DNA from: Candidatus Nanoarchaeia archaeon
GTDB lineage: Archaea; Nanobdellota; Nanobdellia; SCGC-AAA011-G17; JAGVZF01
Assembly (NCBI GenBank): GCA_035288965.1
Contig: DATDYQ010000104.1
Span: forward strand, 10,089 to 74,088
DNA: 64,000 bases
Direction: 5' to 3'
The position numbers were made by a program, and so were the translations under genes. Below the pieces are notes generated by a model. It saw nothing but the letters and a program-made list of their open reading frames with translations, was not told where the DNA came from and did no database searches. Position 1 is the stretch's first letter, and every line of letters begins with the position of its first letter. Shown here piece after piece: positions 11,164 through 59,059 of this stretch.

Positions 11164-12174
11164 TTATTTTTTATCTAAACTTGCTAACAATTCATCTAAA
11201 GTTAATGTTGCTGTTCCAACTTTGCCAATAACTACTGCTGCAGCATGGTTTGCAACAGACATAGAATCTTTAACTCCTAATTCAGAAGCTAATCCCAAGG
11301 AAAATATAGCTAATGCAGTATCTCCCGCTCCAGAAAGATCATATACTGGAACACTTTTTCCTTTAGAATGATGATAAAGCCCTTCTTGCCCAAAAAATTT
11401 CATTCCTTCTTTACCACAAGTAATAACGACCCCACCAGTCCAATATTTAGATATAAGCTTTCTACCAACATGATTTATATGCTTATTTTTGTCTAGTCCT
11501 GTTATCTCTCTTGCCTCTTTAGAATTTAACATTAAAAAATCCATATCATAATAAATACTAGCATTTATTGGTTTAGGTTCAACAATAAATAATTTCTTTC
11601 TTCTTTTAGCTTCCATTCTCAAAAATTTTACCAATGTTTTAGTAATAATCCCTTTACCATAATCTGATATTAAATATACATCTGCATCTAAATCAGATTC
11701 CCTAAAATGATTTATTAAAATATTAGTTTGATCTCTATTCAATCTTGTGTCCATTTCTTCATCGAATCTAGCAATTAAATCTTCATCATCTGCTATAAGC
11801 CTATTTTTTGTTGTGGTTATTCTATCCCTTAATGAAATGATTCTAGATTTAATTCCATTATAAGAAACTAAATCATAAACCACTTTCCCTGACTTATCAT
11901 TTCCCATAACACCATACAAATAAGCTGTAGCCCCAAGACTTGCAATATTACTTGCCGTATTCCCCGCACCCCCCAAAACATCAGAATGTCCTGTAACTTT
12001 TACTAGATTGGTTGCGCGTCTCTCTGGGTTTAATCTCTCTATCTCTCCTAAAATATAATGATCTAGCATTACATCTCCAACAATTAAAATTTTCCTTTCA
12101 GGGAATGTTCTGACAACTTCTTTTACTCTTTCTATGTTCATATTAATCACTTTGTACTTTCTACTCTTTCCCAA
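11164..12174 (-). CDS. hldA: D-glycero-beta-D-manno-heptose-7-phosphate kinase (HldE domain I / RfaE-I-like, PfkB family)
   Basis: VGDVMLDHY, GGAGNTASNIASLGA, DLSGAGDT and GKVGT match the HldE kinase domain motif-for-motif. There is no adenylyltransferase domain. Confidence 0.8.
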   Translation of the reverse strand: MGKSRKYKVINMNIERVKEVVRTFPERKILIVGDVMLDHYILGEIERLNPERRATNLVKVTGHSDVLGGAGNTASNIASLGATAYLYGVMGNDKSGKVVYDLVSYNGIKSRIISLRDRITTTKNRLIADDEDLIARFDEEMDTRLNRDQTNILINHFRESDLDADVYLISDYGKGIITKTLVKFLRMEAKRRKKLFIVEPKPINASIYYDMDFLMLNSKEAREITGLDKNKHINHVGRKLISKYWTGGVVITCGKEGMKFFGQEGLYHHSKGKSVPVYDLSGAGDTALAIFSLGLASELGVKDSMSVANHAAAVVIGKVGTATLTLDELLASLDKK

Positions 12175-17054: not shown

Positions 17055-17726
17055 CTAAATGATTAAACCAAATTTTCCCAAAACATCTTCTAGCGTATTT
17101 CTTCTATAATCAAATTGTACAGAATTTATTCCTAATTTTCTGGCCCCTTTTACATATTCTTTATTATCATCAATAAAAAGAGTTTCTTCTGGTTTGCTTC
17201 CCAATCTTTGTAATGCATTTTTATATATTATAGGATCTGGTTTTGCACATCTATCTTCAGAAGAAAATGTCAAATAATCTGAATTAAATCCATTAAAGAA
17301 TTCAACATCTTTATAATAATTAAGAATAGATTCTGTTATGTTCGATAATATTCCTACTTTTATCCCACCTTTAGCTATTTTTTTTGCTATTTCTACATTG
17401 TTTCCTATAACTAATCTTTCTCTACCTTGAATATAAAATGGCTTACTAAATAAATCCACACTATCACCTCTTAATAATATATTATCAGAAACTCCATTTC
17501 TCCTTCTTTGTTCGCCAAATGCTCTTTCTAGCCTGCTAACAGCTTCTTCATAAGTAATTCGACCCCTATTTAGATCTACAAGAACTGTATCTTTCAAAAC
17601 TTTAGCCATTTCTTGTTGTGGAACATTATACAAAGAGCTAAGATGATTTAGTATTAAATCATATCCTTCAATAACTAACACATTAGCCATATCAAAGAGC
17701 ACTGTTGTTATTTTTGTTTTAAACAT
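17055..17726 (-). CDS. HAD-superfamily hydrolase (phosphatase-like)
   Basis: N-terminal 'VLFDMANVLV' and C-terminal 'LFIDDNKEYVKGARKLG' HAD motifs. Confidence 0.5.
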   Translation of the reverse strand: MFKTKITTVLFDMANVLVIEGYDLILNHLSSLYNVPQQEMAKVLKDTVLVDLNRGRITYEEAVSRLERAFGEQRRRNGVSDNILLRGDSVDLFSKPFYIQGRERLVIGNNVEIAKKIAKGGIKVGILSNITESILNYYKDVEFFNGFNSDYLTFSSEDRCAKPDPIIYKNALQRLGSKPEETLFIDDNKEYVKGARKLGINSVQFDYRRNTLEDVLGKFGLII

Positions 17727-17805: not shown

Positions 17806-18870
17806 GTGGTACATGCAAAATTTGATGAAACAGAAAAAGAACAAGAATATATAAACACAGTAAAAAGGCTACTTAATCCGCATCGCCCTTATTTAAAAAT
17901 AGGTAAAGTAAAACTTGGAGCTGGAAGAACAAATGATAATCTTCTTGTTTATGATACTGATAGTAAACCAGTTTGTGTTGTAAGAAAATCAAGACTAGAT
18001 AGAACTAATATGGCTCATTTTTATTTTCTTCAAATACAATCATTAGAAAGAGAAAAATTTCTTCTTGAATATATTGGCAAACATGCTCCAAAGGTTCCTA
18101 TCCCAAGACTTATTGCAGCAGATCAAGATCCAGAAGATGGACTAGATTATCTTGTAGTATCCCATATTAGTGGAATAAATTTTGCTGATATTGCAGGATC
18201 TTTAACTCCAAATCAATATAATAATTATATGAGAAATTTAGGAGAAACCATCGCTCCTGTAAGTAATTTAACATTCGGATCATTCGGTATTATCGGACCT
18301 GATGGAATTATAATTAATCCATTCCAAAGATGGAGTGATAGAATTGCCTTCTCAATATATGGAAAATTAAAAGATCCTGCTTCAACCGAATATTTTACAC
18401 ATGAATTATTATTTGAAAAAATTCCTGAATTTATTGAAAAACATAGAGAAGCTCTAGATAAAAATAGAAGACCTACAGCTGTTTTATATGATCTGCATTC
18501 AAAAAATTTTAATGTAGATCCAACAACAGAAAAAATCACTGGTTTCTTTGATATCGGTTTAGGACTTATTGCTAATAGAACATTGGAATTCGTTCCCATT
18601 GAACTTAATACAGTAAACTTTGGAAAAACAGAACGTCCGGCTGCATTAGAAGCATTTTTTGAGGGGTATGGACTATCTCTAAAAGATAGAGCAGATTATG
18701 AAGCTGCAAAACCAGTCTATGCACTAAATCATTCACTGGGGGCGGTTTTAGCCTATCATAATAATCCTGTAGATGATCTAAGAAGAGATCTTTGGAGTAG
18801 AGAAGTCTTCAAACCAAGAGTTGAAGAAATAGTAGAAAAAGGAATAGTAAATATGGTAAGATGGTTCTGA
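17806..18870 (+). CDS. APH-fold phosphotransferase (aminoglycoside/choline-kinase-like). It may be a sugar kinase.
   Basis: 'LYDLHSKNFNVD' (HxDxxxxN-like) and 'FFDIGLG'. Confidence 0.5.
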   Translation: MVHAKFDETEKEQEYINTVKRLLNPHRPYLKIGKVKLGAGRTNDNLLVYDTDSKPVCVVRKSRLDRTNMAHFYFLQIQSLEREKFLLEYIGKHAPKVPIPRLIAADQDPEDGLDYLVVSHISGINFADIAGSLTPNQYNNYMRNLGETIAPVSNLTFGSFGIIGPDGIIINPFQRWSDRIAFSIYGKLKDPASTEYFTHELLFEKIPEFIEKHREALDKNRRPTAVLYDLHSKNFNVDPTTEKITGFFDIGLGLIANRTLEFVPIELNTVNFGKTERPAALEAFFEGYGLSLKDRADYEAAKPVYALNHSLGAVLAYHNNPVDDLRRDLWSREVFKPRVEEIVEKGIVNMVRWF

Positions 18871-19748
18871 ACAAATTACACGGCATTATAGTACCCTTAT
18901 CGACACCAATTAAAGAGGATCAATCAATAGATTTTCCTGCAACTAAAAATCTAGTGGATAAATTAATTGAAAATGGTGTTGATGGACTTTTTCCCTTAAG
19001 TGGTACTGGAGAGTTTCCGATGCTTTCTTTAAGAGAATCTAAACAGTTTATAAATTTTGTAATGAGATCTTCTAGTGGAAGAGTTCCAGTTTACCCTGGA
19101 GCTTTTAGAGACAATTTAGGTGACACTTTAGAATTGGCTTTTGCTGCAGAAATATCTGGTGCTGAAGGAATTGTTTTAATGCCACCTTATTTTTATGGTC
19201 GTATTAAGAGTGAAGATATCGTAGACCAAGTTAGAAGAATAAAATGTAATATAAATTTACCTGTTATTTTTTATAATACAAATTCAAAATTAAGATTAGA
19301 TGAAGCTAGTATGCTTAGATTACATCAAGAAGGTTTAGTTATTGGAGCAAAAGAGGGAAGTAAAGATTTAGACTATCTAAAAAGATTAGCAGAATCTGGC
19401 ATGTCTGTTCTTCCAGGTAGCGATAAACTTCTTTATGCTGCATCTCAATTTGGTTGTGTGGGTGGTTTTCCTGGAAGTGCTAATGTATTAACGAAAGGGT
19501 TTGTAACCTTGTGGAAATTTATTCAAGAAGAAAAATTACAAGAAGCTGAGGCATTGCAATCTAGAATTAGTAGTGTTGTTGAAGTTATGTATAAAACAAA
19601 CCCCTATAGCGCCCAAACAGGTGTTAAGATTGGTTTAGAATATCTAGGTATCTGCCTTTCAAGAATGAAATATCCAATGCCTCAAGCAACTACAGAAGAA
19701 AAAAGAATTATTTTCGAAACATTAGATAAAAACAAGGATTTACTTTAA
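18861..19748 (+). CDS. DapA/NanA-family class I aldolase (N-acetylneuraminate-lyase / DHDPS-like)
   Basis: 'GIIVPLSTP...VDGLFPLSGTGEFPMLSLRE' at the N-terminus matches the family pattern. Confidence 0.65.
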   Translation: MVLNKLHGIIVPLSTPIKEDQSIDFPATKNLVDKLIENGVDGLFPLSGTGEFPMLSLRESKQFINFVMRSSSGRVPVYPGAFRDNLGDTLELAFAAEISGAEGIVLMPPYFYGRIKSEDIVDQVRRIKCNINLPVIFYNTNSKLRLDEASMLRLHQEGLVIGAKEGSKDLDYLKRLAESGMSVLPGSDKLLYAASQFGCVGGFPGSANVLTKGFVTLWKFIQEEKLQEAEALQSRISSVVEVMYKTNPYSAQTGVKIGLEYLGICLSRMKYPMPQATTEEKRIIFETLDKNKDLL

Positions 19749-19784: not shown

Positions 19785-21548
19785 ATGAAAGATGTAAAGA
19801 TCGGTGACAAGATAATTGGTAAAGGCCACCCTGTCTTTGTTATAGCAGAAACAGCCTCCAGCCATGTAGGAAATAAAGAAAAACTTAAACAGCTAATTAA
19901 AGCTGCTATAGATTCAAATGCAGACGCTATCAACTTACAAAAATTCTATGCAAATGAGCTTGCTGTTCCTCAAAATCCGCAACATAAGGATTTGGCAATC
20001 ATCGAACTTAAAGATCCAGATTGGAAAGAAGTTCTAGATTATGCTAAAACTTTAAACACAATTATTATTGGAAATCCTTTTGATGAATCTAGTGTAGACT
20101 TCTTTGATCCTTATGTGGATGCTTTCAAGATTCATTCTACTGATATTAATAATCCTGAAATGTTAATGAAAGTAGCAAAAAAGAATAAGCCAATGTTTCT
20201 TGGTATTGGCGGAGCAAAACCTTTTGAAATAAAAAGGGCAATTAAAATTCTTCAATCAACTGGTAATGATCAAATTGTTTTAATGCATGGTTTTCAGGCT
20301 TTCCCAACAAGATTAGAGGATAGTAATCTAAAGTTAATTCCAACAGTAGAAAAAGAATATAATCTTCCAACTGGATTTCTTGATCATATCGATGCTGAAA
20401 CAAAAATGGCAATGATTCTTCCATTACTCTCAGTAGTCCAAGGAGCTGTTTTGATTGAAAAACATATAACATTAGATAGAAAATTAAAAGAATATGATTA
20501 TTTTTCAGCTTTACATCCATCTGAATTCAAAGAAATGATGTTCTTGATTAGAGAAACAGAAAAAGCAATTGGTCATGGACAATTTATTCAATCAGAAGGT
20601 GAAATTGGATATAACACTATGATGAAAAAGAATTTAGTTGCTAAAGTTCCCATAAAAAAAGATACAATTTTAACAAAAGATATGATAACTTTCAAAAGAG
20701 CTCGAGTAAATCCTGGTCCTTCTCCAATTGATGTTGAAAAATTTATTGGAAAATCAGTTAATAAAGATTTAAATGAAAATGATCCAATCACATTAGATGA
20801 CTTAAATCTTAAATCAATTATTACATTAGCTGTAAGAATGAAATCATCTAGATTGCCAAGAAAAGCGTTAGCTGTTGTTGAAGATCAAACAGTTATAGAA
20901 CATTTAATAGATAGAATGCAATTATGTAAGGTTCCATCTGATTTAATCTTATGTACATCCACTCATCCAGATGACGCTGTTTTAATAGACATAGCAAAGA
21001 AAAAAGGTATAAAATATTTCGCAGGTTCAGAAGATGATGTTATGGATCGTTTCATCAAAGCAGCATTGCCTGAAAAAGCAGATATCATTGTAAGAGTTAC
21101 AGGGGATAATATATTTACAGATCCTGAATTCCTAGATGAAACAATAAAATTTCATATAAAAAATAATCTGGATTATTCATTACAAGAAGGATTACCAATT
21201 GGATGTATTTCAGAAGTTATTACCTTACATAATTTAATAAAAGCTCATGAAGCAACTCTTGATCCTGAAAACACAGAATATATGACATATTATTTGAGAA
21301 ATGAAGATTACTTTAAAGGTAACTCCTTGAAGGTCTCAAGTGAATTTAACTTCCCTAACTACAGATTGACAATAGATAATCCTGAAGATTTACAACTTAT
21401 CCAAGAAATATTTAAAGAACTTTATGTTCCTGGAAAAGTAATTCCATTAAGAGATATTTTAAATTTATTAAATAAAAAGCCTGAACTATTAAATATAAAT
21501 AAGAATGTTCAAGGAATACAATTTACAGTTAAAGGTTTGAAAAGTTAG
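19785..21548 (+). CDS. Fusion of a NeuB-type nonulosonic-acid synthase (with SAF domain) and a C-terminal CMP-sugar cytidylyltransferase (NeuA/SpsF-like)
   Basis: 'GKGHPVFVIAETASSHVGNKEKLKQLIKAAIDSNADAINLQKF' (NeuB). 'ITLAVRMKSSRLPRKAL...VRVTGDNIFTDPEFLD' (CTP_transf_3-like). Confidence 0.75.
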   Translation: MKDVKIGDKIIGKGHPVFVIAETASSHVGNKEKLKQLIKAAIDSNADAINLQKFYANELAVPQNPQHKDLAIIELKDPDWKEVLDYAKTLNTIIIGNPFDESSVDFFDPYVDAFKIHSTDINNPEMLMKVAKKNKPMFLGIGGAKPFEIKRAIKILQSTGNDQIVLMHGFQAFPTRLEDSNLKLIPTVEKEYNLPTGFLDHIDAETKMAMILPLLSVVQGAVLIEKHITLDRKLKEYDYFSALHPSEFKEMMFLIRETEKAIGHGQFIQSEGEIGYNTMMKKNLVAKVPIKKDTILTKDMITFKRARVNPGPSPIDVEKFIGKSVNKDLNENDPITLDDLNLKSIITLAVRMKSSRLPRKALAVVEDQTVIEHLIDRMQLCKVPSDLILCTSTHPDDAVLIDIAKKKGIKYFAGSEDDVMDRFIKAALPEKADIIVRVTGDNIFTDPEFLDETIKFHIKNNLDYSLQEGLPIGCISEVITLHNLIKAHEATLDPENTEYMTYYLRNEDYFKGNSLKVSSEFNFPNYRLTIDNPEDLQLIQEIFKELYVPGKVIPLRDILNLLNKKPELLNINKNVQGIQFTVKGLKS

Positions 21549-21585
21549 TTTTATAAGGTTTTCTATATTCTATAAAATATATATT

Positions 21586-21849
21586 ATGGGGGTTAACAAA
21601 ATGGTAGAAAAGCAAGCTAAAACATTAGATGAAAGATTACAATTTGAAGAAGGAGATTTACACTTAGAAGGTAATTTTGCGATTAGCCTTGGTTTAGGGA
21701 AGTCTCTTGCAGATGATGAAATAAAGAAAATTGTAATTGGTAAGTATAATGGCGTATTAAAATATGTCGATAAAAAAGGACAATTAAAAATCGTAGGCAA
21801 TGGGTTATACAGCATAATAGGTTTAGGAAAATATGCCGGCGCAATTTAA
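21586..21849 (+). CDS. Hypothetical small protein
   Basis: 87-aa ORF with no recognised motif. Confidence 0.35.
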   Translation: MGVNKMVEKQAKTLDERLQFEEGDLHLEGNFAISLGLGKSLADDEIKKIVIGKYNGVLKYVDKKGQLKIVGNGLYSIIGLGKYAGAI

Positions 21850-21910
21850 TTTATTAATCTCAAGATCTATAAATAATATAATAAATAGAAAAAAGTAGAT
21901 AAACAATAAA

Positions 21911-22393
21911 ATGCCAATTGATGATGCATTAAATGATTTGCCAAGATCAAAAGAAGCGTCAAAACAAATAGTTGCACCTCCAGAACCAGAGCAAGCAAAT
22001 AAAGTAATTTTCACTGATGCCGTACAACAATTTAGAAATAGTTTACAATATTATCTTCCTTATCAATTGGCAACAATTATAAAAAGTAAAGGACTAAATG
22101 TAACCTGGGATAACGGCAATATAGTTTCTTTTTTAGATAATGAAATTTTTTTAAAATTTACGTCTATTGGAATTGCAGCCCATAAAAGATTTTGGTTCGG
22201 TCATGATTGGATAGGTTATTTATATTTTAATGATCCTAATAAATGGAAATTGGAAGTTTATGGAAGAAAAAATATAGATAGATTAAAAAATCTTGCTGAC
22301 GAAATATCAAAACAATATTCAAAAGATATAGAGCTTATATTAGAATTAGAATATCCAAAATCAAAGTCAGTAGAATATGCTGGTTTTATCTAA
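21911..22393 (+). CDS. Hypothetical protein whose N-terminal 'MPIDDALNDLPRS' motif is shared with the ORF at 55209
   Basis: ORF. The N-terminal paralogy is seen directly. Confidence 0.45.
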   Translation: MPIDDALNDLPRSKEASKQIVAPPEPEQANKVIFTDAVQQFRNSLQYYLPYQLATIIKSKGLNVTWDNGNIVSFLDNEIFLKFTSIGIAAHKRFWFGHDWIGYLYFNDPNKWKLEVYGRKNIDRLKNLADEISKQYSKDIELILELEYPKSKSVEYAGFI

Positions 22394-23535
22394 ATCTTTA
22401 ATTCTTCATAGATTAACTTAACAACCCTTTCAGTTGCTTTCCCGTCATTACCTTCAACAAAGCTTTCCCTTCTTTGCTTTAATTCTTCTCTAAATTCTCC
22501 ATTATATAAAATTTTCATTAAATTAGGAACCAACTCTCTTGTATTATAAACACCAAGAGAATAACCATTTTTGTTGGTAATCAAAGGATCCTCTGTTTTT
22601 AATCCAACTTGTAAACTTAAAACATCAGTATCTAATAAACAAGCTTCCATTAATGAAGTTGACATCATTCCAACTACCAAATTAGAAGCTTTCATTGTCT
22701 CTCTTGTATTATAATTATTATTATACTCTCTTTTTGTTGCGTCTTCCTTCCCACTCATGACTAAATTCATATCTTTTAATAATAATGTTCTTTCTACAAT
22801 ATCCTCAAATGTCTCTCTAGGATGAAATTTAATAACAAATGTCCCATGATATCCCATGTCATTCAATCCATTAGATAATATTTTAAAAATTGTTTCTTCA
22901 TTATAACCCCAATCAGTAGTTTTATTCGCTTTAAGATCTCCTTTAATTGGTTGTGAAATAAAGGTTATCAAACTTCCTTCTGGATGTACCCCAAAATATT
23001 CTCTTATCTCTTTTCTTTTATCAATTGTAAATTTAGCATTTAATTCTCCTATATCATCAAAGTAAGGGTTTCCTGTAATCTTTAATCTTTCTCTAGGTAA
23101 ACCTTCTTTAACCATTTTTTCCAAACTTTCTGCATCTAATGCCGTATGAATATCAGGCATGCATCCTAAGTTATCTCCTGTTTTGTCATTTCTAACCCTT
23201 ACAATATAATTGACTGGTAAATCTATAACAGAAATGCTTCTTACCCCTCTTTTCCTAGCTTCCAATATTAATTTTTTTTCAACACACCATCCACCGCTAC
23301 TTCCCGTGACTAGAAGGTTTGGTTTTTCTTCGTCTTCAAATTCAACTTCGGCAGATGTATAATCATTCAATATAGAATGAGATAAACCAGCTTGTGTAAA
23401 TGAACTAATAGCAGGTCCGTTAGCTATTAATGTCAAATCCACTTTATCATCTTCTTGCAATCTTCTTGCAACAGGAATAACAGAATTCGCACTTCCAGTA
23501 TACTGCGCTGCCACCATTACTTTAGATTTTGTCAC
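22390..23535 (-). CDS. TagB/TagF-like GT-B protein (CDP-glycerol glycerophosphotransferase-family fold, PF04464-like)
   Basis: 'IKFHPRE' and a C-terminal 'MMSTSLMEACLLDTDVLSL' GT-B donor-site-like region. Confidence 0.45.
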   Translation of the reverse strand: MTKSKVMVAAQYTGSANSVIPVARRLQEDDKVDLTLIANGPAISSFTQAGLSHSILNDYTSAEVEFEDEEKPNLLVTGSSGGWCVEKKLILEARKRGVRSISVIDLPVNYIVRVRNDKTGDNLGCMPDIHTALDAESLEKMVKEGLPRERLKITGNPYFDDIGELNAKFTIDKRKEIREYFGVHPEGSLITFISQPIKGDLKANKTTDWGYNEETIFKILSNGLNDMGYHGTFVIKFHPRETFEDIVERTLLLKDMNLVMSGKEDATKREYNNNYNTRETMKASNLVVGMMSTSLMEACLLDTDVLSLQVGLKTEDPLITNKNGYSLGVYNTRELVPNLMKILYNGEFREELKQRRESFVEGNDGKATERVVKLIYEELKI

Positions 23536-23574
23536 TTTTTATCACAAAATAAAGGTGTAGAAAAATATATAAAT

Positions 23575-25359
23575 CTATTTCTGATATATTTCATCAATAA
23601 GATTTATAACTCTTTCGGTGCTTTTTCCATCAATTTTATAAGCATAATCCTTAATAAATTTCTCCATGTTTTTTTCTAATTTTTCTTTAATCTTTTTATT
23701 ATTAAAAACATCATTTATTGCATTTTTTAATTCTTTTTCTTCTTTGACATCAATTACACATCCATAATCATTGTAATCAATCATCTCATTGCTTCCTTTG
23801 ATATTAGCTAAATTTAAAGTAATAACAGGAACATTAAATAACATAGATTCAATAACAACAGTAGACGAGGCTCTGCTTATAGTTAAATCTGCAATATTCA
23901 AAAAGTTATAAATATCATAATCTTTAACAACAACAACTTTATTTTTAATATTATTTAATCTGCTATTATAAAAATCAACATCATCTTTTGGGTGTAATTT
24001 TATTATTAGTTGTTCATCTTGCAAGGAATTAATAACTGCCTTGAACATTTCCTCCTTCTCTGGAACAGTCTGTGTTCCGAATAATATTATCTTCTTATCT
24101 TTATCCAAATTAAATTGTTTATATACTTCTTCTTTATCATACTCTTTATTTTTAATAATATCAAACTTACTGGCTCCAGTTATAACTATTTTCTCTTCAT
24201 TAACATTATTTTGCAATAAAAATTTCTTCGTAGATTCTCCCCAAACAGCTATTTTTGTGCTTGTTACAGGAACAAATCCCAATCTTCCAGCAACTCCATG
24301 TTGTAAAACTAAAGATTTTATTTCTAATTTATTCCCGACAAATGCAATTGTTTTTCCAAATCTATGAACGTCACTACCCATAACAATAATATTTATCTCT
24401 TCTTTTTTGATAACAATTTTAATTCCTTCTATCAATCTAACAACTTCATAAAAATGTTTAAACACAGTATAATGCAATTCATCTTCTAAAATTTCCCATA
24501 AATTAATATTATCATACATAAATCTCCTATCTTGGTATAAAATCTCCCATATTTGATCAAGCTCTTTTTTCTTTTTATCAAGAACTTTGTTTATTTCACT
24601 TAAATCATAATCTGCAAATGTATTAAATTTTATTCCTTTTTTCGCAAATGCCTCCTGAACATCTAAAGCCAAAGCGAATATTAAATAATTTTTATTCTGT
24701 TTTTTCATCTCTTCTATAATAGGAAGCATTATCTGCGGATCTAAATTTAAATAACTAAAAAACATCACTTTCTTATCGCCATAATTTTTATTTTTATAAT
24801 TAAAACTTTTTAGTTTCACATAATTATCCAAAACAACTGGTTTTATGTATCTTCCAGCAATAAATTTTGTTTTTTCTCTAAATATATTAATAAGATTAAC
24901 ATTCCTATCGCTAACAATCTCATATTTAGCATTCAGTTCTTTCAAACTAGTAATTATTGTTTTGCTTAGAAAATCTTTTCCATCAATTACCAAAAACATA
25001 TCTGGCTTCTCTTTCTCAATAACCTTCTTTATTAATTCTATATTTGCAATCAAGCTTCTTAAAACAAGTTCAAAATGTAAGCTTGTACATTCATATAATG
25101 GAATTCCATCATGCTTTGCTAATTTTTTTGCTTCAGGAAAACTAATCATATTCCAATTAATGCTTATATTCCTTATTTTGTCAGCAAGTTCATTAATTAA
25201 TTTGGTTTCATTGATATAATCACTCTTAGTTTTAACATTAGCAAAATTAACTTTTTTGTTAGAAAGATTTAGTATTATTCCATCCCCTAAATCTTTTAAT
25301 CTTTTATTGATCTTATCTAGTTCTTTCTCGTCTTTTACTATTCCTATAATCCTTGTCAT
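23575..25359 (-). CDS. TagF-like GT-B protein (CDP-alcohol phosphotransferase or a possible CMP-sugar transferase)
   Basis: 'IKLHPKDD', 'ISRASSTVVIESMLFNVPVI' and an 'IIVMGSDVHRFGKTIAFVGNK' region. Confidence 0.5.
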   Translation of the reverse strand: MTRIIGIVKDEKELDKINKRLKDLGDGIILNLSNKKVNFANVKTKSDYINETKLINELADKIRNISINWNMISFPEAKKLAKHDGIPLYECTSLHFELVLRSLIANIELIKKVIEKEKPDMFLVIDGKDFLSKTIITSLKELNAKYEIVSDRNVNLINIFREKTKFIAGRYIKPVVLDNYVKLKSFNYKNKNYGDKKVMFFSYLNLDPQIMLPIIEEMKKQNKNYLIFALALDVQEAFAKKGIKFNTFADYDLSEINKVLDKKKKELDQIWEILYQDRRFMYDNINLWEILEDELHYTVFKHFYEVVRLIEGIKIVIKKEEINIIVMGSDVHRFGKTIAFVGNKLEIKSLVLQHGVAGRLGFVPVTSTKIAVWGESTKKFLLQNNVNEEKIVITGASKFDIIKNKEYDKEEVYKQFNLDKDKKIILFGTQTVPEKEEMFKAVINSLQDEQLIIKLHPKDDVDFYNSRLNNIKNKVVVVKDYDIYNFLNIADLTISRASSTVVIESMLFNVPVITLNLANIKGSNEMIDYNDYGCVIDVKEEKELKNAINDVFNNKKIKEKLEKNMEKFIKDYAYKIDGKSTERVINLIDEIYQK

Positions 25360-25371
25360 ACTCTATCATAA

Positions 25372-26442
25372 CTATTTCTTTAATTCTCCCACGTGTTCCC
25401 AATCCAATATATCATCCTCTTTCATATCTTTTAATACCCTTCTTCCTATAATCTCGCTAAAGAATCTTGGATTAATTCCTGTTCCAGGTCTTTTTGATGT
25501 TATATTTTTAACATCAAATATTTCCCCTGCCCTAATATCCCTATTTGCTACAATGCTCCTTCTTGCTAATCTTTGAGCAGGCTCTTCAACTTTAATTGGT
25601 CGTCTTGCTAATGTACTTCCTAATGCACTTTCTATCTGTTTTATATTTGTGACCATCTCTTTCAGTTCTTTAGGATCAACAGATAACCAATGATCGGCAC
25701 TTCCCTTCAATGTTTTATCTATAGTATAATGCTTCTCTATCATCTTTGCTCCCAGACTAACAGCTCCGATCGGCACCAAAGTTCCCAAACTATGGTCACT
25801 TAATCCGATTAAATAATCCGGAAATATTTTCTTTAAAGTTGGAATCATATTCAAATTCATATCTTTCGTAGGTGTCGGATAAGATAAAATGCAATGCAAT
25901 AATATTATCTGATTATTTCCTTGCTCTTCAATAACGCTTACAGCTTCTTCTATCTCTCCAATTGTAGCTGCTCCTGTAGATAATGCCATCGGCAATCCTT
26001 TTTTTGCTATATGTTTTAAAAGATTTAAGTGAGTTATATCTGCACTTGCAATTTTATACATTGGCACTCCAATCTTTTCCAAGAAATCAGCGCTTTCTTC
26101 ATCAAATGGTGTTGAAAAAAATATTATTCCTAATTCTTCAGCATATTTCTGCATTTTAATAAAATCTTCTTCACTAAGATAATCGAAGTTCTTGTATTCA
26201 TCATATTGTGTTTCATCACTTTCTGTCCAATATTTAGGAGAATTTTTTATTGCTATTTTTTCAGCTTTATATGTTTGGAATTTTATTGCATCTGCCCCGT
26301 TTTCTTTTGCTTTTTTTATTAATTCATAACCTCTTTCCAACATACAATCATGATTTACTCCAGCTTCAGCTACAACAAAACAAGGCTCATCATCCCCTAC
26401 ATATCTATTTCCTATCTTTATTCTTGTCACCATTTCAACCAC
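25372..26442 (-). CDS. neuB: NeuB-family nonulosonic-acid synthase (second copy, with SAF domain)
   Basis: 'CFVVAEAGVNHDCMLERGYELIKKAKENGADAIKFQTYKAEKI' and a C-terminal SAF-like domain. Confidence 0.8.
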   Translation of the reverse strand: MVEMVTRIKIGNRYVGDDEPCFVVAEAGVNHDCMLERGYELIKKAKENGADAIKFQTYKAEKIAIKNSPKYWTESDETQYDEYKNFDYLSEEDFIKMQKYAEELGIIFFSTPFDEESADFLEKIGVPMYKIASADITHLNLLKHIAKKGLPMALSTGAATIGEIEEAVSVIEEQGNNQIILLHCILSYPTPTKDMNLNMIPTLKKIFPDYLIGLSDHSLGTLVPIGAVSLGAKMIEKHYTIDKTLKGSADHWLSVDPKELKEMVTNIKQIESALGSTLARRPIKVEEPAQRLARRSIVANRDIRAGEIFDVKNITSKRPGTGINPRFFSEIIGRRVLKDMKEDDILDWEHVGELKK

Positions 26443-27826
26443 CCTTATAATTTTTTATTATCTGTTCAGCAAGCCATAAATCATATTCATTATATATCCT
26501 TACAGCTTCGTTCGGCATCATCTCAACATAAGCTACACTATTCCCGATAATCCCATTATTGTTTAAATTCTCTAAAGTTGTAATATAAAATGCTCCATTT
26601 TCTTCTAGTATAGTATCTTTTTCATCTCTCAATAATCTTTTATTAAATAATGGCTCGATTCCATATCTTCCTGGTTTCCAATGAAAATTAAGATTTGCAC
26701 AAACAGAGACTATGCTATCTGTTTTAAATATTAATTGAGTAAAAATTCCTTCTTTTATATGCTCACTTGTTTTAAAAGGGCTTATCAAATGTAAAACAGC
26801 AATTAAATCAGGAACATAATCATCATTCTTCTTCAAATAATCAACAACATGTCTTACAACATCATCAACATGAACTGTTTTTTTTGCTAAATCAATTGGT
26901 CTTTTGATAACATAAGCTCCTAATTTTTCAGCAGCACTTGCAATATCGTAATCTTCAGTAGAAACAACAATTTTATTAAACAATTCAGTTTTTTTCGCTT
27001 CATCTATTGTATAAGATAATAAAGGTTTTCCATTTAAATTTGCAATTGGAATTTTAATCCCATTAATCATGTCGCCTCTAGCAGGAATAACAGCTAATAT
27101 TTTCAAATTTTTTAACTTTCCATCATAATGTCTTTTAACAAATTCTTCCTTTACAATTCTTTTAGAATGTAAAATCCCTTTCATATTCTTAGTCATATTT
27201 GCACCATGTCTTCTATAATAAAACAAAGGCAGATTAATATTTCTAACTTTAAATTTAGTAATAAACTTCATCCAAAAATCATAATCTTCTCCAATCTTTA
27301 AATTTTCATTATATCCCCCAATTTCATCATAGCATATTCTCTTGTACATCGCTCCAGCAGCTAAAGGACTTCTTTGCAGTAAATCAACTTCTTCATTAAC
27401 TTTCATCAATCTATTATGCTCCAATATCTTTCCATCTTCGTCTATAGTATAATAATCTGAATAAACCAAATCAACATCTTTATTTTCATACAAAAATCTT
27501 TCTTCTACTAATAGCAAATTATCATCAAAATAATCATCAGCATCTAATCTTATTATAAAATCCCCTTGAGACATACTAATTCCTTTATTACAGGCTGCGC
27601 TTAATCCAACATTATCTACCCTTATTACTTTCAAATTATTTGGAAATTTTGATTTATAACTTTGAATTACATCTTGAGTATTATCTGTACTTCCATCATC
27701 AACTAAGACAATTTCAAAATCTTTATAAGTTTGCTTGGTCAAGCTATCTAAACATTTATCTAAAAATCTCCCATAATTGTGCGCGGTTATTATAACGCTT
27801 ACTTTTGGTTTATTAATAGCTTCCAT
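26435..27826 (-). CDS. Fusion of an N-terminal GT2 domain and a C-terminal CMP-sugar cytidylyltransferase (NeuA-like)
   Basis: 'VSVIITAHNYGRFLDKCLDSLTKQTYKDFEIVLVDDGSTDNT' (GT2). 'ILAVIPARGDMINGIKIPIANLNGKPLLSYTIDEAKK' (NeuA/KdsB-like). Confidence 0.7.
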   Translation of the reverse strand: MEAINKPKVSVIITAHNYGRFLDKCLDSLTKQTYKDFEIVLVDDGSTDNTQDVIQSYKSKFPNNLKVIRVDNVGLSAACNKGISMSQGDFIIRLDADDYFDDNLLLVEERFLYENKDVDLVYSDYYTIDEDGKILEHNRLMKVNEEVDLLQRSPLAAGAMYKRICYDEIGGYNENLKIGEDYDFWMKFITKFKVRNINLPLFYYRRHGANMTKNMKGILHSKRIVKEEFVKRHYDGKLKNLKILAVIPARGDMINGIKIPIANLNGKPLLSYTIDEAKKTELFNKIVVSTEDYDIASAAEKLGAYVIKRPIDLAKKTVHVDDVVRHVVDYLKKNDDYVPDLIAVLHLISPFKTSEHIKEGIFTQLIFKTDSIVSVCANLNFHWKPGRYGIEPLFNKRLLRDEKDTILEENGAFYITTLENLNNNGIIGNSVAYVEMMPNEAVRIYNEYDLWLAEQIIKNYKGG

Positions 27827-27856: not shown

Positions 27857-28933
27857 CTATGCAGTAGCCTTTACTTCAGAAGGTTTAGCATATCTATATC
27901 CTTCATGTAAATTACAAGTTCTGCAAGCAGGCATAACATCTAATTTATTTTGTTTATGCAACTCTCTTAATTGACTTAATATCGCTCCGTTCCATATTTC
28001 TTTTAATGTTTGCTTAGTAACATCCCCAACTACATTCTTCCTAAACCAATCTCCACAGCACATCATAACTTTTCCATCCCACGCTACCATCAATCTTTGG
28101 AATGGTTGTGGACAGGTTTTTCTTCCTAAAGTAATTTGATCATAATTAATTGATCTATCATTTTCTTCTCCTTCTCCTCTATTACTGTAATCATTTGTTG
28201 CGACATGGTCTACTATCCCTTCCCACATTTTAATAAATTGGTCAACTTCATGAACATTATCTTTCATCCTAACCATCTGTATTCTGATAAATGGTTTTTT
28301 CTTTCCCATTTCATTTCTTATTCTTACAAAATCTTTAATATTTTTCATTAAAATATCATATTTTGCTCTCACTCTTATTTTTTCATAAGTTTCTTTAGTA
28401 GCCCCATCCATAGAAAATATTATTCCATCTAATCCTGCTTCTATCAATCCCCTAATTTTATTTTCATTTAATAAAGTTCCATTAGAATTTGTTTGTAATT
28501 CTTTAATCCCTTTATCTTTTGCATATTTCACCATTTCAATAAACTTGGGATGAATTAACGGTTCACCTCTCCAATTAAGTTTCATAGAATATAATCCTTC
28601 TTTTGCGCATTCGTCTACAATTTTATGAAATAAATCCATTGTAATAAATCCATCTTGAATTCCACTTCTATCAAAACTTTGTGGGCACATAACGCATCTC
28701 AAATTACATGCATCGCTCGGTTCAATGTCCACATGTGTTGGAAATTTAGGAATTAATCCAAATCTTGCTGTTCTAGGGCTCCAGTTCCATTTAGCTCTAT
28801 ACCATAAATATTTTGGATCTTTCTTATTCATGAACTTTTTAAATTTAGCTTTAAATCCACCTTGTATATGATGTCCACTCCCACCATAGAAGTGTTGTTT
28901 CTCGTTTGTTTCATTACTTTGTTCAGTTGACAT
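27857..28933 (-). CDS. Radical SAM enzyme with a C-terminal Cys-rich SPASM/twitch-like domain
   Basis: 'SDACNLRCVMCP' (CxxxCxxC), then 'CPQPF...CCGDW...CRTCN'. Confidence 0.7.
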   Translation of the reverse strand: MSTEQSNETNEKQHFYGGSGHHIQGGFKAKFKKFMNKKDPKYLWYRAKWNWSPRTARFGLIPKFPTHVDIEPSDACNLRCVMCPQSFDRSGIQDGFITMDLFHKIVDECAKEGLYSMKLNWRGEPLIHPKFIEMVKYAKDKGIKELQTNSNGTLLNENKIRGLIEAGLDGIIFSMDGATKETYEKIRVRAKYDILMKNIKDFVRIRNEMGKKKPFIRIQMVRMKDNVHEVDQFIKMWEGIVDHVATNDYSNRGEGEENDRSINYDQITLGRKTCPQPFQRLMVAWDGKVMMCCGDWFRKNVVGDVTKQTLKEIWNGAILSQLRELHKQNKLDVMPACRTCNLHEGYRYAKPSEVKATA

Positions 28934-28940
28934 ATTGATC

Positions 28941-30395
28941 TTAAACCGTAGCTTCTCCGCTTTTTCCTGTTATTAAATTTAAAGCACCTAAAGCTCCTCT
29001 CGCATAATATTTTACTTGTTCAAATGATTTAATTCCAACAAACATTTTCCATAAATAGCTTGGTCTCATATAAAATTCTTTGTAAGCTTTCTTTCTTAAC
29101 TCTTGTAGTTGATCTGTTGTTAACTCTCTAGATCTTATTAATGGATCTTCAGCTATTTGCACCCAATTATCCCAATTTGGATCTGAAATTAAGTTTTCTT
29201 TTACAGTAATATCATACAATCCGGTTCCAACAATCGGGATTGCTAAAAAGAAATAAGCTAACTGAGGGTTAATTTCTTTAGCTAATTTTATTGTTTCTTC
29301 AAATGTTTCTTTTGTTTCACCTGGATATCCTAAAATAAAAGATGCTGATGCCGGAATTCCAACTTCGTGTATTAACTTGAAAGCTGCTTTTATTTGTGCA
29401 GGAGTTTGATCTTTTTCCATTGCATCCAATATTTTTTGACTTCCTGATTCAACCCCAAATCTAACAAAATAACATCCTGATCTTTTCATCTTTTCTAAGC
29501 TTTCCCTATCACAATGATTAACTCTAGTTAAACAGTTCCAATGCAAATCATAATCTCTTTTTATTAATCCATCTAAAATTGGGTTCATTCTACTTTTATT
29601 AATAACAAAAATTTCGTCATTAAATTCTAAGCAATGAATATTAAATTTATCAACTAAATAATCTATTTCTTCCAATGTTCTTTCAACACTCCAATATCTA
29701 ACTTTTCTTGTCCACATAACTTTAGAAGCGCAAAAGTTACATCTATAAGGACAACCTCTCAAAGAAAAGAATATGGAAAACGGTTGTAATTTAACTCCGC
29801 TAACTTGGAAAGAGCTATGATGCGCAGGTGGTCTATATAATTCCATTGGTAATAAATCATAAGCTGGCATTGGCAACATATCTAAGTTTTCAATTAAAGG
29901 ACGAGGAGCAGTCATTCTTATCTGTCCATTATCTCTATAAATCATTCCATTAACTTTAGATAAATCTTTTTTTCCTCTTTTCTCTAATTTATCCAATAAT
30001 TCAACTGTTGTTAACTCTCCCTCGCTAATAACTCCATAATCAACAATTGGAAATTCCTTCATTGTCTCAAATGGCAATGCAGTCATGTGATCTCCGCCTA
30101 AGAAAGTCTTGACATTAGGATTAACATTTCTAGCTATTTGTAAAACATCACAAGCTTTTTTTACTGTAGGCGTAACAGCTCCAACCCCAACAACATCAAC
30201 ATCTTTAGGTATATGTTTATGTAATTCCTTCATCGGAATTTGCAACGCTACTGCATCTAAAATGCTTACTTTATGTCCCTTTTCTCTCATGTAAGCAGCA
30301 AGATAAGCTAGCCCCATTGGTTGATTAATTCCTGCAACTGTTGGAACCTTTTTATATACTTCTTGATAACTTGGATTTATTAGCTGAACTTTCAT
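28941..30395 (-). CDS. B12-binding radical SAM enzyme
   Basis: N-terminal B12-binding-like domain, 'CPYRCNFC', 'FGVESGS'. Confidence 0.8.
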   Translation of the reverse strand: MKVQLINPSYQEVYKKVPTVAGINQPMGLAYLAAYMREKGHKVSILDAVALQIPMKELHKHIPKDVDVVGVGAVTPTVKKACDVLQIARNVNPNVKTFLGGDHMTALPFETMKEFPIVDYGVISEGELTTVELLDKLEKRGKKDLSKVNGMIYRDNGQIRMTAPRPLIENLDMLPMPAYDLLPMELYRPPAHHSSFQVSGVKLQPFSIFFSLRGCPYRCNFCASKVMWTRKVRYWSVERTLEEIDYLVDKFNIHCLEFNDEIFVINKSRMNPILDGLIKRDYDLHWNCLTRVNHCDRESLEKMKRSGCYFVRFGVESGSQKILDAMEKDQTPAQIKAAFKLIHEVGIPASASFILGYPGETKETFEETIKLAKEINPQLAYFFLAIPIVGTGLYDITVKENLISDPNWDNWVQIAEDPLIRSRELTTDQLQELRKKAYKEFYMRPSYLWKMFVGIKSFEQVKYYARGALGALNLITGKSGEATV

Positions 30396-30544: not shown

Positions 30545-32047
30545 ATGAATAAAAAACATTTGAATATTATAGCAGGTGGAGCTTTAATCACTCTAATTGG
30601 AATTCTAATCTCTAAATTATTCAGTTATTTTTATAGATTAATTGTTTCAAGATTGGGAAGTGAAAATTATGGATTAATATCATTAGCTTTCGCTGTTGTT
30701 GGAATACTTTCAATATTCACTTCCATTGGTTTAGATTTTGGTATTACTAGATATATCTCTTATTATAAAAACAAAAATGATCTTCCAAGATTAAAAGGAA
30801 CTTTTTTTTCAGCTTTTAAGATTAGTTTTGTTTTAAGTATAATATTTAGTATGATTTTATTCTTTTCTTCTAATTTCATTTCTATAAATCTGTTTCATAA
30901 TCAAAATCTTTCCATTTTATTAAAAGTATTTTCTCTTGTTTTAATATTCCAATCAGTAAGAAAGATAATAACAGAAACTATAAGGGCATTCCAAAAGATA
31001 AATTATTATGTAATCTCATTAAATATAGTTGAGCCTGTTGTAAATCTTTTATTAACTTTAATTTTTATCTATCTTGGTTATAGCCTTACAGGCATTAGTA
31101 TTGCTTATGTATCTGCTGTATTTATCAGTCTTGCAATTTCTATTTATTTTTTAGAAAAAAAAGTATTTCCGATATTTACTAGTAAAATTGCTTCTATTTA
31201 TGAAAATAAGGAATTAATATCATATTCATGGCCGTTAATGTTTAGTACAGCTTTAGCAAGATTTATTGTCTGGACAGATATATTATTCCTAGGATTTTAT
31301 AAAACCGCTTCTGACGTTGGAATCTATAATACTGCAATACCTACTGCACAATTGCTTTTAATAGCACCAACAGCTATTCTAAACCTATTTGTTCCGATAA
31401 TAACTGAATTAATAGCAAAAAATAATCCAGATGAAATTAAAGGTATTTATCAAACAACAACAAAATGGATTTTCTTCATTAACTTTCCAATATTTCTGAT
31501 ATTTATAATGAATTCTAATCCAATATTAAAAGTATTATTTGGTTCAGAATATTCTATTGGTTTTATGGCTTTAATCGTTTTGTCTGTTGGTTATTTTATT
31601 AATTCAATATTATTTGCGTCAAGATACATGCTTGATTCTCTAAAGAAAACAAAATTTATTTTACTAAATACAATCATAGTCACATTGTTAAATATCATTC
31701 TCAACTTAATCTTAATTCCAAAATATGGAATTTTAGGAGCAGCGATAGCAACCGCATTAACAATTTCATTATTTGGAATAATAAACTGGATTAAAGTTTA
31801 TAATATAAATAAAATAAATGTTTTCAAATTAAGTTATGTAAAATCTATATTTGCTAGCATAATCGCAGTAGTGCCAGTATATTTATTCTTAAAAATTACT
31901 AACCTTACAACCTTCTTCCTTTCATTTATCCTATCTGGAGCAATTTACGGTTTCTTAATGTGGAAAACAAAAGCCTTATCTAAAGAAGACGGTGAAGTGC
32001 TTGATAGTTTAATAAAATTTAAAAAAGTAAAAGATATAGGATCATAA
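30545..32047 (+). CDS. Wzx-like oligosaccharide flippase (polysaccharide biosynthesis protein, MOP superfamily)
   Basis: About 12-14 TM segments in the typical Wzx arrangement. Confidence 0.65.
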   Translation: MNKKHLNIIAGGALITLIGILISKLFSYFYRLIVSRLGSENYGLISLAFAVVGILSIFTSIGLDFGITRYISYYKNKNDLPRLKGTFFSAFKISFVLSIIFSMILFFSSNFISINLFHNQNLSILLKVFSLVLIFQSVRKIITETIRAFQKINYYVISLNIVEPVVNLLLTLIFIYLGYSLTGISIAYVSAVFISLAISIYFLEKKVFPIFTSKIASIYENKELISYSWPLMFSTALARFIVWTDILFLGFYKTASDVGIYNTAIPTAQLLLIAPTAILNLFVPIITELIAKNNPDEIKGIYQTTTKWIFFINFPIFLIFIMNSNPILKVLFGSEYSIGFMALIVLSVGYFINSILFASRYMLDSLKKTKFILLNTIIVTLLNIILNLILIPKYGILGAAIATALTISLFGIINWIKVYNINKINVFKLSYVKSIFASIIAVVPVYLFLKITNLTTFFLSFILSGAIYGFLMWKTKALSKEDGEVLDSLIKFKKVKDIGS

Positions 32048-42235: not shown

Positions 42236-42874
42236 CTATTTGTAAGCTTTCTCGCCAGTTTTATACTGTAAATCATCAACTTTTTTAATTATTTTTGCAG
42301 GATTCCCGACAACTACTGTATTTTCAGGAACATCTTTTGTTACCACGCTCCCCGCCCCAACTAAAGCATTTTTTCCTATATTTAATCCAGGAAGTAAAGT
42401 AGAATTTGCTCCTATCTTTGCATCTTCTCCGATAATAGATCCAGCCAATTTATCTTTTGCTAATTCTGATAATGGAAATGGTGCATTTGTTAAAACAACA
42501 TTTGGACCAATCCAACTTCCTTTTTTTAGTTCACAATATTCAGGAACAAAAGCTTGAGTATGTATTCTTACATTATCTTCAATCTTAACATGATGCTCAA
42601 CCACACTTAAAGTTCCTATAGCAACATTATTCCCAATTTCATTTTCTTCCCTTATATTTACTTTGTTTCCTGTTTGAAAATTATCTCCTATTTTATTTCC
42701 AGAATAGATTACTGTATGACTCCTTATATAGCAATTATTTCCAAGAATAGTTTTTAATTCACCTTCTTTCTTTCCTCTAGGTGCTGCTCCAATAATAACA
42801 TAATCTTCTATAACACAATTGTCCCCCATAGTAACATTTTCATGTATTCTTGCTGTAGGTGCTATTTTATTCAT
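42236..42874 (-). CDS. Hexapeptide-repeat (left-handed beta-helix) sugar N-acetyltransferase (WbpD/PglD/NeuD-like)
   Basis: Repeated [LIV]G-x4 hexapeptides throughout. Confidence 0.75.
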
Positions 42875-59047: not shown

Positions 59048-59059
59048 TTTATAAAACAC

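Follow-up and report, generated by a model that had tools for sequence, protein, structure and literature searches.

Do two nonulosonic acid synthases of the NeuB type and two cytidylyltransferase-like domains, one joined to a synthase and the other to a glycosyltransferase, add up to two parallel sugar pathways in a single archaeal genome? The question is raised by a 64,000-nucleotide stretch (hereafter, the window) of a Candidatus Nanoarchaeia archaeon (assembly GCA_035288965.1, contig DATDYQ010000104.1, positions 10,089 to 74,088 of the forward strand), which an earlier note had read as a duplicated module with two unusual fusions. We consider it fairly probable that the region is, instead, a single copy of a nonulosonic-sugar cassette that is widely shared and has spread horizontally, set here in a large glycan island of this DPANN archaeon; it represents a familiar type of nonulosonate system in an uncharacterised form. 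Five proteins are central to it and are referred to by letters (Table 1): A, a radical S-adenosylmethionine (SAM)/SPASM enzyme; B, a B12-radical SAM enzyme; C, a NeuB-SAF-SpsF protein; D, a family 2 glycosyltransferase (GT2) with a NeuA-like domain; and E, the second NeuB.

The cassette would make, activate, modify and transfer sialic-acid-like (nonulosonic) sugars for the cell surface; its catalytic activities and substrates, and the role of one degenerate domain, are predicted here from architecture, spread, synteny and the presence or absence of motifs. Most likely, protein C, which combines a divergent SpsE-type synthase with an SpsF-type cytidylyltransferase, would convert an aldose and phosphoenolpyruvate (PEP) to a product and then to its cytidine monophosphate (CMP) form, protein E being the predicted canonical second synthase. 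Protein D would primarily be a GT2 glycosyltransferase, metal-dependent and intact, and its NeuA-fold domain, in which cytosine- and carboxylate-binding positions are kept and triphosphate- and Mg-binding residues are lost, has a cytidine nucleotide or a (CMP-)nonulosonate as its probable ligand. Proteins A and B are predicted to modify the sugar, and two BFO_1060-like GT-B proteins would likely transfer it.

The domain content that had been assigned to the three enzymes was borne out by Pfam and NCBIfam (NeuB, SAF and CTP_transf_3 in C; NeuB and SAF in E; GT2 and CTP_transf_3 in D), and a tblastn search with canonical NeuA detected no further such region in the 64 kb, neither cytidylyltransferase-like domain thus being free-standing. 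Both fusions are real. Their reading frames are uninterrupted, and the exact 587-aa protein C and 463-aa protein D were found on 14 and 18 of the contigs read, respectively, among them contigs from separate assemblies (ENA, JGI) in which the neighbouring genes are the same. Since identical fused proteins occur in independent assemblies, a frameshift, read-through or assembly artefact has a practically negligible probability; the one observation in its favour is that, among the full cassettes fetched, those closest to the window encode C in two genes that overlap, and against it, each architecture is common to more than 100 homologue clusters and both halves of each fusion protein stay conserved.

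The rarity suggested for these architectures, and the impression that a GT2-NeuA fusion had not been described, did not survive homologue searches with C and with D, whose spread was read from the best 120 listed clusters for each. In nearly all of these, C homologues have the NeuB(-SAF)-CTP_transf_3 architecture at 560-620 aa, in sources including Woesearchaeota, Thermodesulfovibrionales, Alphaproteobacteria, Gammaproteobacteria, Omnitrophota, Elusimicrobiota and Bacillus spizizenii (one cluster of the last holding 144 member sequences). Likewise, nearly all of the D clusters, at 44-72% identity, join GT2 to CTP_transf_3, in Aenigmatarchaeota, Hadesarchaea, the haloarchaea Halosimplex and Halomicroarcula, Nitrospirota, Omnitrophota, Elusimicrobia and Planctomycetota, and several have been named by JGI 'CMP-N-acetylneuraminic acid synthetase/GT2 family glycosyltransferase'.

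Gene neighbourhoods place these proteins in a common cassette. A one-genome-per-species scan with the C-type NeuB motif returned more than 596 relatives, from which 80 loci were kept; the window domains were compared by BLAST with all open reading frames (ORFs) of these loci, and look-ups via relatives of D added L168, L170 (Hadesarchaea) and L169 (Nitrospirota). Patterns taken from the D alignment proved to be generic GT2 motifs when run against metagenome contigs, and of the 80 loci obtained in that separate scan only one (L088) was a full-length relative. An Omnitrophota contig (L005) presents radical SAM/SPASM, B12-radical SAM, C, D and E in that sequence, and the order A-C-D-E is conserved in L005 and four further loci, from an archaeon (L011, 41-53% identity), Desulfovibrionaceae (L012), Pelagibacteraceae (L014) and Rhodospirillaceae (L021). 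L168 and L170 both have all five components (37-57% identity). In a set of 21 species-representative loci encoding a C-type NeuB, the SpsF-like part is fused or lies within 400 bp in 18, and a second, E-type NeuB lies within 10 kb in 16; protein A is present in six and protein D in five. Homologues of A (43-51% identity) flank the cassette in L005, L011, L021, L168, L169 and L170, B12-radical SAM genes stand within or beside it in L005, L012 and L169, and homologues of the 594-aa GT-B-like protein adjoin it in L011, L015, L017, L020 and L170. Because an E-type NeuB recurs near the C-type one, the two synthases belong to different subfamilies travelling in one conserved cassette with a radical SAM/SPASM enzyme, and a simple duplication is not supported.

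In the window, protein C is detached from A-D-E. The minus-strand genes run in the order B, A, D, E and then the two GT-B-like proteins and are closely packed, the likely ATG of E lying 1 nt past the stop codon of D (as a minor correction, the ATG at 26433 is a likelier start for E than the GTG at 26442), while C is encoded convergently on the plus strand behind an APH-family kinase and a DHDPS/NanA-family aldolase. Together with a HAD phosphatase-like gene, these make up a trio seen in this arrangement only on contigs with an identical protein C. Since no homologue of the trio was found in 83 other loci screened, it was rejected as a part of the cassette and is regarded as lineage-specific.

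The two-pathway model requires that protein D can activate a sugar. Its GT2 half appears intact: Pfam Glycos_transf_2 covers residues 10-137 (114.2 bits), the motifs DDGSTD, RLDADD and EDYDFW do not vary among 15 members of the family, and this half is the most conserved part of the protein, with most of the invariant columns. In the AlphaFold model (pLDDT 81 overall, above 90 across most of the NeuA-like domain), the GT2 half superposes on a glycosyltransferase of Leptospira borgpetersenii (6P61; TM 0.90, 33% identity), and the C-terminal fold on the CMP-nonulosonate synthetases 6IFD, 9T4Z, 1EYR, 1QWJ and 9FTC (TM 0.79-0.86, Foldseek). The match of this C-terminal domain to CTP_transf_3 (residues 246-328, 36.1 bits against a cut-off of 22.6) covers profile positions 3-85 only, and that to the NCBIfam PseF equivalog (residues 244-442, 73.5 bits) is below the cut-off of 205.7.

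Aligned by HMMER with the Vibrio cholerae, Neisseria meningitidis and murine enzymes, the domain has 'ARGDMINGIKIPIAN' in place of the canonical P-loop 'ARGGSK..KN' (ARxxSK....KN), 'LHLISP' for 'LQPTSP', 'RDEKD' for 'RQ.LP' and 'RIY' for the Mg-binding 'DID'. Equivalents of Lys21, Gln104, Asp209 and Asp211 are thus missing, a loss shared by all 15 family members, in whose alignment the P-loop is the most variable stretch, with indels. Nearly all of 28 stand-alone NeuA-like ORFs beside NeuB genes in the fetched loci, in contrast, keep GGSK...KN, LQPTSP, RQxLP and DID (four Vicinamibacteria ORFs are among the exceptions). When 1.84 billion representatives were searched with the C-terminal 225 aa of D, the P-loop was missing in 20 of 21 GT2-fused matches and present in 68 of 90 stand-alone ones. 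In the N. meningitidis enzyme, D209A left activity unmeasurable, D211A lowered kcat 15,000-fold, substitutions of Gln104 cut kcat 800- to 20,000-fold, and Lys21 and Arg12 are catalytic (PMC2901514).

The conserved cytidylyltransferase motifs are thus missing from the GT2-fused domain, family-wide as well as in the window protein, an outcome that the earlier note had named as refuting for such a domain, and the proposal that it is a CMP-sugar synthetase is not supported. What it retains are the STD/E, SP and NGAxY positions, the arginine of RPxELA and a second, Arg165-like arginine, a ligand of the sugar carboxylate, and the domain is probably a ligand-binding rather than a catalytic module; most likely, it still binds a cytidine nucleotide and/or a nonulosonate and no longer makes a CMP-sugar. 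Because the catalytic residues of D are lost, only one of the two candidate activating enzymes in the window is credible. Two complete parallel pathways, each with a synthase and an active synthetase and with D truly bifunctional as glycosyltransferase and CMP-nonulosonate synthetase, as the earlier note had modelled, are in our judgement unlikely. The domain is homologous to NeuA/PseF in sequence and fold, equivalents of Arg12, Arg71 and Arg165 are kept in the window protein, and the automated JGI names would agree with such a model; against it stand the missing catalytic residues, the variable P-loop with its indels, the intact stand-alone relatives and the cassettes of L007, L011, L168 and L170, where an additional canonical NeuA adjoins D, which suggests that D does not supply CMP-sugar synthesis.

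Related designs occur elsewhere. In Vicinamibacteria (L015 12846-14582, L017 10942-13203, L019 14118-16037), non-canonical NeuA-like domains, which have ARGGxD..PYLN but lack DxD, share a polypeptide with a PseG-like GT-B domain (Glyco_tran_28_C) and lie directly after an E-type NeuB; a dead NeuA joined to a glycosyltransferase fold thus appears to be a recurring design. These fusions also bear on a different role for D, in which its GT2 half would be a nucleotide-sugar hydrolase, an analogue of PseG/LegG freeing the aldose for the adjacent NeuB, with the NeuA-like domain as a scaffold or product sensor. No recognisable PseG or NeuC was found in the cassettes, and SDR-type nucleotide-sugar enzymes (short-chain dehydrogenases/reductases) lie directly upstream of D in L005 and L169. 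Helicobacter pylori HP0326 is likewise treated as two parts, HP0326A and HP0326B, corresponding to PseF and PseG. Even so, dedicated hydrolases are not known in the GT2 family, the strongly conserved acceptor-side loops of D fit a defined acceptor, and the window has no SDR or nucleotidyltransferase near D to supply a nucleotide diphosphate sugar; this role is, we believe, quite improbable.

As for protein C, the idea of one polypeptide that makes a sugar acid and activates it with CMP stands as plausible, because the metal ligands and the cytidylyltransferase P-loop, and with them the catalytic signatures of both halves, are kept. Pfam places NeuB at residues 37-265 (165.7 bits), SAF at 284-340 (36.2 bits) and CTP_transf_3 at 350-542 (61.3 bits against 22.6), and the nearest solved structures are Bacillus subtilis SpsE (1VLI, 128.7 bits) and the cytidylyltransferase 6OEW (76.9 bits). 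Both halves are conserved in an alignment of 14 diverse members, at 50% mean column identity. The NeuB half keeps the Mn ligands H201 and H227 (equivalents of His215 and His236) together with E225 (Glu234), K115 (Lys129), Q52 (Gln55), D238 (Asp247) and, in SAF, R305 (Arg314); the other half has an SpsF/KdsB-type P-loop (R351, S354, R356, K360) with RVTGD and RLTIDNPED, conserved in the 14 members. H201, H227, E225, K115, Q52 and D238 of the first half, and the four P-loop residues and TGD of the second, do not vary in the family. SpsF is genetically required for the use of legionaminic acid in B. subtilis (PMC7439481). CMP-activation by protein C is likely on these grounds, and nonulosonate synthesis, substrate aside, is probable. 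The scores against the equivalogs NeuB TIGR03569 (194.9 against 399.65) and PseI TIGR03586 (178.5 against 340.25) lie below the cut-offs.

The origin of the fusion can be read from its relatives. In L168 and L170, the NeuB stop and the SpsF start overlap at ATGA as two separate genes, and the window protein is collinear through this junction with no linker ('...LDDLNLKSIITLAVRMKS' against '...EKLV*' and 'MKTAILIAVRLKS'). The halves are separate adjacent genes in L011, L015, L017-19, L021, L022, L025 and L040, and the order is reversed in L039 and L043. Protein C is thus a classical case of two translationally coupled genes becoming fused, which argues that the NeuB and SpsF halves act in consecutive steps.

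Two side observations concern this gene. In Bacillus spizizenii and B. stercoris the C-type fusion is an orphan (L006 10001-11791, L009 10001-11686), lying between a DUF5362 and a DUF5392 gene, with a Peptidase_M23 gene and the urease operon close by, and no further sugar genes were seen near it in these two loci. The segment downstream of protein C varies at strain level (window 21549-22390 against L001 4765-6205): one assembly carries an additional ORF of 186 aa, in place of which the window shows only ORFs of 87 and 160 aa that match no family.

Protein E is the more conventional synthase. Its Pfam scores are 294.4 bits for NeuB and 46.9 bits for SAF (in both C and E, NeuB, PF03102, and SAF score above gathering), its nearest structure is SpsE (1VLI, 242 bits) and the motifs IKFQ, KIAS, STG, SDH, EKH and KRPG are all present. 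Like C, it falls below the equivalog cut-offs (NeuB_NnaB TIGR03569, 360.1 against 399.65; PseI TIGR03586, 313 against 340.25). A legionaminic or pseudaminic acid pathway was considered and is not supported: the window has no 4,6-dehydratase or SDR and no aminotransferase beside the cassette, and the sole aminotransferase (42928-44037) and a NeuD-like acetyltransferase (42236-42874) lie 15 kb away, forming with a GFO-family dehydrogenase (47526-48542), about 3.5 kb beyond them, a group of genes suited to a 2,3-diacetamido sugar. Next to related cassettes lie SDRs, nucleotidyltransferases or UDP-sugar dehydrogenases instead of aminotransferases. At the island edge, a NanE-type ManNAc-6-phosphate 2-epimerase is encoded at 264-1004 (minus strand; NCBIfam 210.6 against a cut-off of 189); with the kinase and the HAD phosphatase, it could allow an animal-like or Leptospira-like phosphorylated sialic acid route via ManNAc-6-phosphate.

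Several observations weigh against the cassette as we read it. No precursor gene (4,6-dehydratase, hydrolysing 2-epimerase) is present in the window to fix the sugar identity, and no characterised member of either fusion family was found in the open-access literature. By tblastn, the 64 kb have no canonical NeuA to partner protein E, which also favours the two-pathway model; the missing partner would be explained most simply if the D domain were still active by an unrecognised mechanism, and it implies on our reading that the SpsF half of C serves both synthases or that the partner lies elsewhere in the genome. The remaining points concern the synthase half of C. The equivalents of Ser154 and Ser213, PEP-phosphate serines described as fully conserved in one NeuB study (PMC11339185), are variable in its family, so that the synthase activity or the co-substrate of C may differ from those of NeuB. 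In addition, Asn50 (window 19932-19934) replaces the lysine of KFQ, the equivalent of Lys53, which binds the PEP carboxylate in NeuB (PMC11339185). The change is restricted to the window protein and its relatives at 95% and 80% identity (lysine is present in 13 of 13 other family members), and it coincides with the relocation of C beside a pyruvate-type aldolase, a kinase and a phosphatase.

These changes, and the family signature HGFQxFPT in place of HCxxxYPT, by which the Asn184 and Tyr186 sugar contacts are altered, lend some weight to another explanation: the C-type 'NeuB' would make another 2-keto-3-deoxy acid, or be inactive here, the DHDPS/NanA-type aldolase carrying out the condensation and only the SpsF half being needed, as the placement behind kinase, aldolase and phosphatase in this lineage alone would suit. 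However, the metal ligands and the Lys129, Gln55, Asp247 and Arg314 equivalents are retained, the SAF domain is kept, conservation of the domain in the 95% and 80% relatives indicates that it is not decaying, and the closest structure is SpsE, a homologue of legionaminic acid synthase; we thus hold this explanation to be unlikely, if somewhat less so than two complete pathways, and continue to favour C as a nonulosonate synthase.

The enzymes predicted to modify and transfer the sugar are less closely assigned. Protein A has Radical_SAM (60.3 bits) and SPASM (55.5 bits) domains in Pfam, with CNLRCVMC as its CxxxCxxC motif at residue 76; it reaches no NCBIfam equivalog cut-off, and its nearest structures, all weak matches, are the sugar-modifying BtrN, BlsE and DesII. 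The CxxxCxxC of protein B is at residue 215. The two halves of the NCBIfam 'spiro-SPASM' model align to the SpsF half of C and to protein A, respectively, and this model seems to represent a second, independent fusion linking SpsF-like and radical SAM/SPASM functions. As a separate observation, the density of radical SAM enzymes is unusually high for one glycan island, with three B12-binding (2383-3726, plus; 28941-30395, minus; 35842-37455, plus) and one SPASM (27857-28933, minus) proteins. The 594-aa GT-B-like protein scores 105.3 bits against NCBIfam BFO_1060 (NF046086; cut-off 200) and 74.6 bits against TIGR04396, and no solved homologue of it was found; the 381-aa protein scores 46.7 bits against the same BFO_1060 family, also below 200. 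The BFO_1060 relatives are transferases of pseudaminic and legionaminic acid derivatives (Pse/Leg) in Tannerella forsythia, as shown genetically (PMC5420450). By resemblance and gene position, both window proteins are likely nonulosonate transferases.

How far does this differ from known systems? The sps operon of B. subtilis, which serves the legionaminic acid pathway of the spore crust, encodes SpsA (GT2), SpsB (TagB-like), SpsE (NeuB-like) and SpsF (cytidylyltransferase) (PMC7439481). As there, a GT2 protein and a TagB/BFO_1060-like protein accompany synthase and cytidylyltransferase, and the halves of C match SpsE (1VLI being best for both C and E) and the SpsF signature ARxxSxRLPxK, RxTGD, RLTxDxxED. 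In contrast, SpsE and SpsF are separate genes in that operon, its aminotransferase, acetyltransferase and SpsG/SpsM steps have no counterpart beside the window cassette, and it is without radical SAM enzymes, a GT2-NeuA-like fusion or a second synthase. The nonulosonate cluster of Leptospira likewise assembles several synthases and cytidylyltransferases, with documented NeuB domain fusions (PMC3438082, PMC4758666), and the best solved matches for the GT2 of D (6P61) and the SpsF domain of C (6OEW) are Leptospira or SSGCID-type entries. The matched Leptospira proteins are stand-alone, however, the reported NeuB fusion partner is a phosphatase-like domain and not a cytidylyltransferase, and the cluster carries NeuC, aminotransferases and NeuD. 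The predicted mode of action of the window cassette is that of the sps and Leptospira clusters, to which several of its parts are most closely related; set against both clusters, it differs in its fused C, its GT2 with a degenerate NeuA, its radical SAM/SPASM partner, its paired synthase subfamilies and its lack of amino-sugar steps.

The D domain shares its fold, at 23-29% identity, with canonical NeuA (N. meningitidis, V. cholerae), PseF (Aeromonas caviae) and murine CMAS; unlike these, it has no P-loop GSK...KN, LQPTSP glutamine, RQxLP or DxD, and always stands behind a GT2. A NeuA-type domain joined to a glycosyltransferase-fold domain is also found in HP0326 and in engineered CMP-Neu5Ac synthetase-sialyltransferase fusions, where, unlike in D (GT-A/GT2, NeuA catalytic residues lost), NeuA is active and is paired with a PseG hydrolase of the GT-B fold or with a sialyltransferase. 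The two GT-B-like proteins resemble the T. forsythia transferases in their best match and in lying directly downstream of synthase genes, and are unlike them in scores far below the cut-off and, for the longer one, in a long additional stretch at the N-terminus.

S-layers, flagella, pili and capsules carry nonulosonic acids, which influence how hosts, viruses and partners recognise a cell; a DPANN archaeon lives attached to a host cell, and surface recognition is likely to matter to it. The cassette is common in uncultured Archaea and Bacteria, and, since the usual amino-sugar steps are missing and a radical SAM/SPASM enzyme is carried, its product may be an unknown member of the sialic-acid-like family. 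Searches of open-access full text returned no literature on either fusion family, on the cassette or on radical SAM enzymes in nonulosonate pathways. For hundreds of proteins with the GT2-fused domain, the automated label 'CMP-N-acetylneuraminic acid synthetase' is probably mistaken, and the natural synthase-cytidylyltransferase fusion, if active, could offer a compact way to CMP-activated sugars with a single enzyme. A bolder proposal, which we offer as doubtful, is that the GT2+NeuA-like family forms a new glycosyltransferase class in which a dead CMP-nonulosonate synthetase domain serves as a (CMP-)nonulosonate-binding module, the GT-A domain either glycosylating CMP-nonulosonate to give a CMP-linked disaccharide donor or transferring the nonulosonate, and that the cassette makes an undescribed, radical-SAM-modified nonulosonic acid common to DPANN archaea, Hadesarchaea, haloarchaea, SAR11-type and many uncultured bacteria.

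Table 1. Positions in the window of the cassette proteins, their sub-parts and neighbouring genes.
Feature	Position	Strand	Length, basis and remarks
Protein C: NeuB(SpsE-like)-SAF-SpsF-type cytidylyltransferase fusion	19785..21548	+	587 aa; Pfam, NCBIfam
Protein C, NeuB+SAF part	~19785-20804	+	
Protein C, SpsF-like domain (residues 345-587)	~20817-21545	+	
Protein E: canonical NeuB+SAF nonulosonic acid synthase (predicted)	25372..26442	-	356 aa; Pfam
Protein D, whole: GT2+NeuA-like	26435..27826	-	463 aa
Protein D, N-terminal GT2 (GT-A) domain	27122..27826	-	residues 1-235; Pfam Glycos_transf_2
Protein D, C-terminal NeuA-fold domain without catalytic motifs	26438..27109	-	residues 240-463
Protein A: radical SAM/SPASM enzyme, conserved cassette partner	27857..28933	-	Pfam Radical_SAM + SPASM
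Protein B: B12-binding radical SAM, likely methyltransferase-type modifier	28941..30395	-	Pfam B12-binding + Radical_SAM
GT-B-like protein, candidate nonulosonic acid transferase	23575..25359	-	594 aa; NCBIfam BFO_1060 below cut-off
Second, shorter GT-B-like protein, same family	22390..23535	-	381 aa; NCBIfam BFO_1060 below cut-off
HAD-IA phosphatase-like	17055-17726	-	Pfam, NCBIfam; divergent, upstream of protein C
APH-family kinase	17806-18870	+	Pfam, NCBIfam; upstream of protein C
DHDPS/NanA-family class I aldolase	18861-19748	+	Pfam, NCBIfam; upstream of protein C
Wzx/MATE-type polysaccharide flippase	30545..32047	+	Pfam Polysacc_synt, MatE

The cassette lies within glycan-biosynthesis genes that run nearly unbroken from about 5 kb to 48 kb of the window and include GT2, GT4 and GT9 transferases, PMT_2 membrane transferases, methyltransferases, a carbamoyltransferase, a flippase and four radical SAM enzymes. 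Borders formed by tRNA genes or mobile elements were considered and rejected, the window having no tRNA gene (about 24-35% GC in 2-kb windows) and the composition around the region being uniform, at about 28-31% GC. Among the island genes are a GT2-methyltransferase fusion and a NodU-like carbamoyltransferase (5280-6539 and 38798-40474, both minus). Two GT9 genes (the LPS, or lipopolysaccharide, heptosyltransferase family), one of them fused to a GT2 domain, belong to a set at 8014-9060 (plus), 11164-12174 (minus) and 12147-14036 (minus), and beside them a PfkB kinase best matches the heptose-7-phosphate kinase domain of RfaE/HldE (267 bits; cut-off 345); their co-occurrence suggests heptose-containing glycans in a DPANN archaeon. 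Two proteins with Polbeta/NTP_transf_2 nucleotidyltransferase domains, scattered among the island genes (44430-44987, minus; 55774-56463, plus), may be toxin-antitoxin-type (MNT-like) genes. After the island, a putative S-layer protein of 784 aa with an S_layer_C domain (56705-59059, minus), a Pfam family typical of Methanococcales S-layer proteins, is a likely carrier of the island's glycans.

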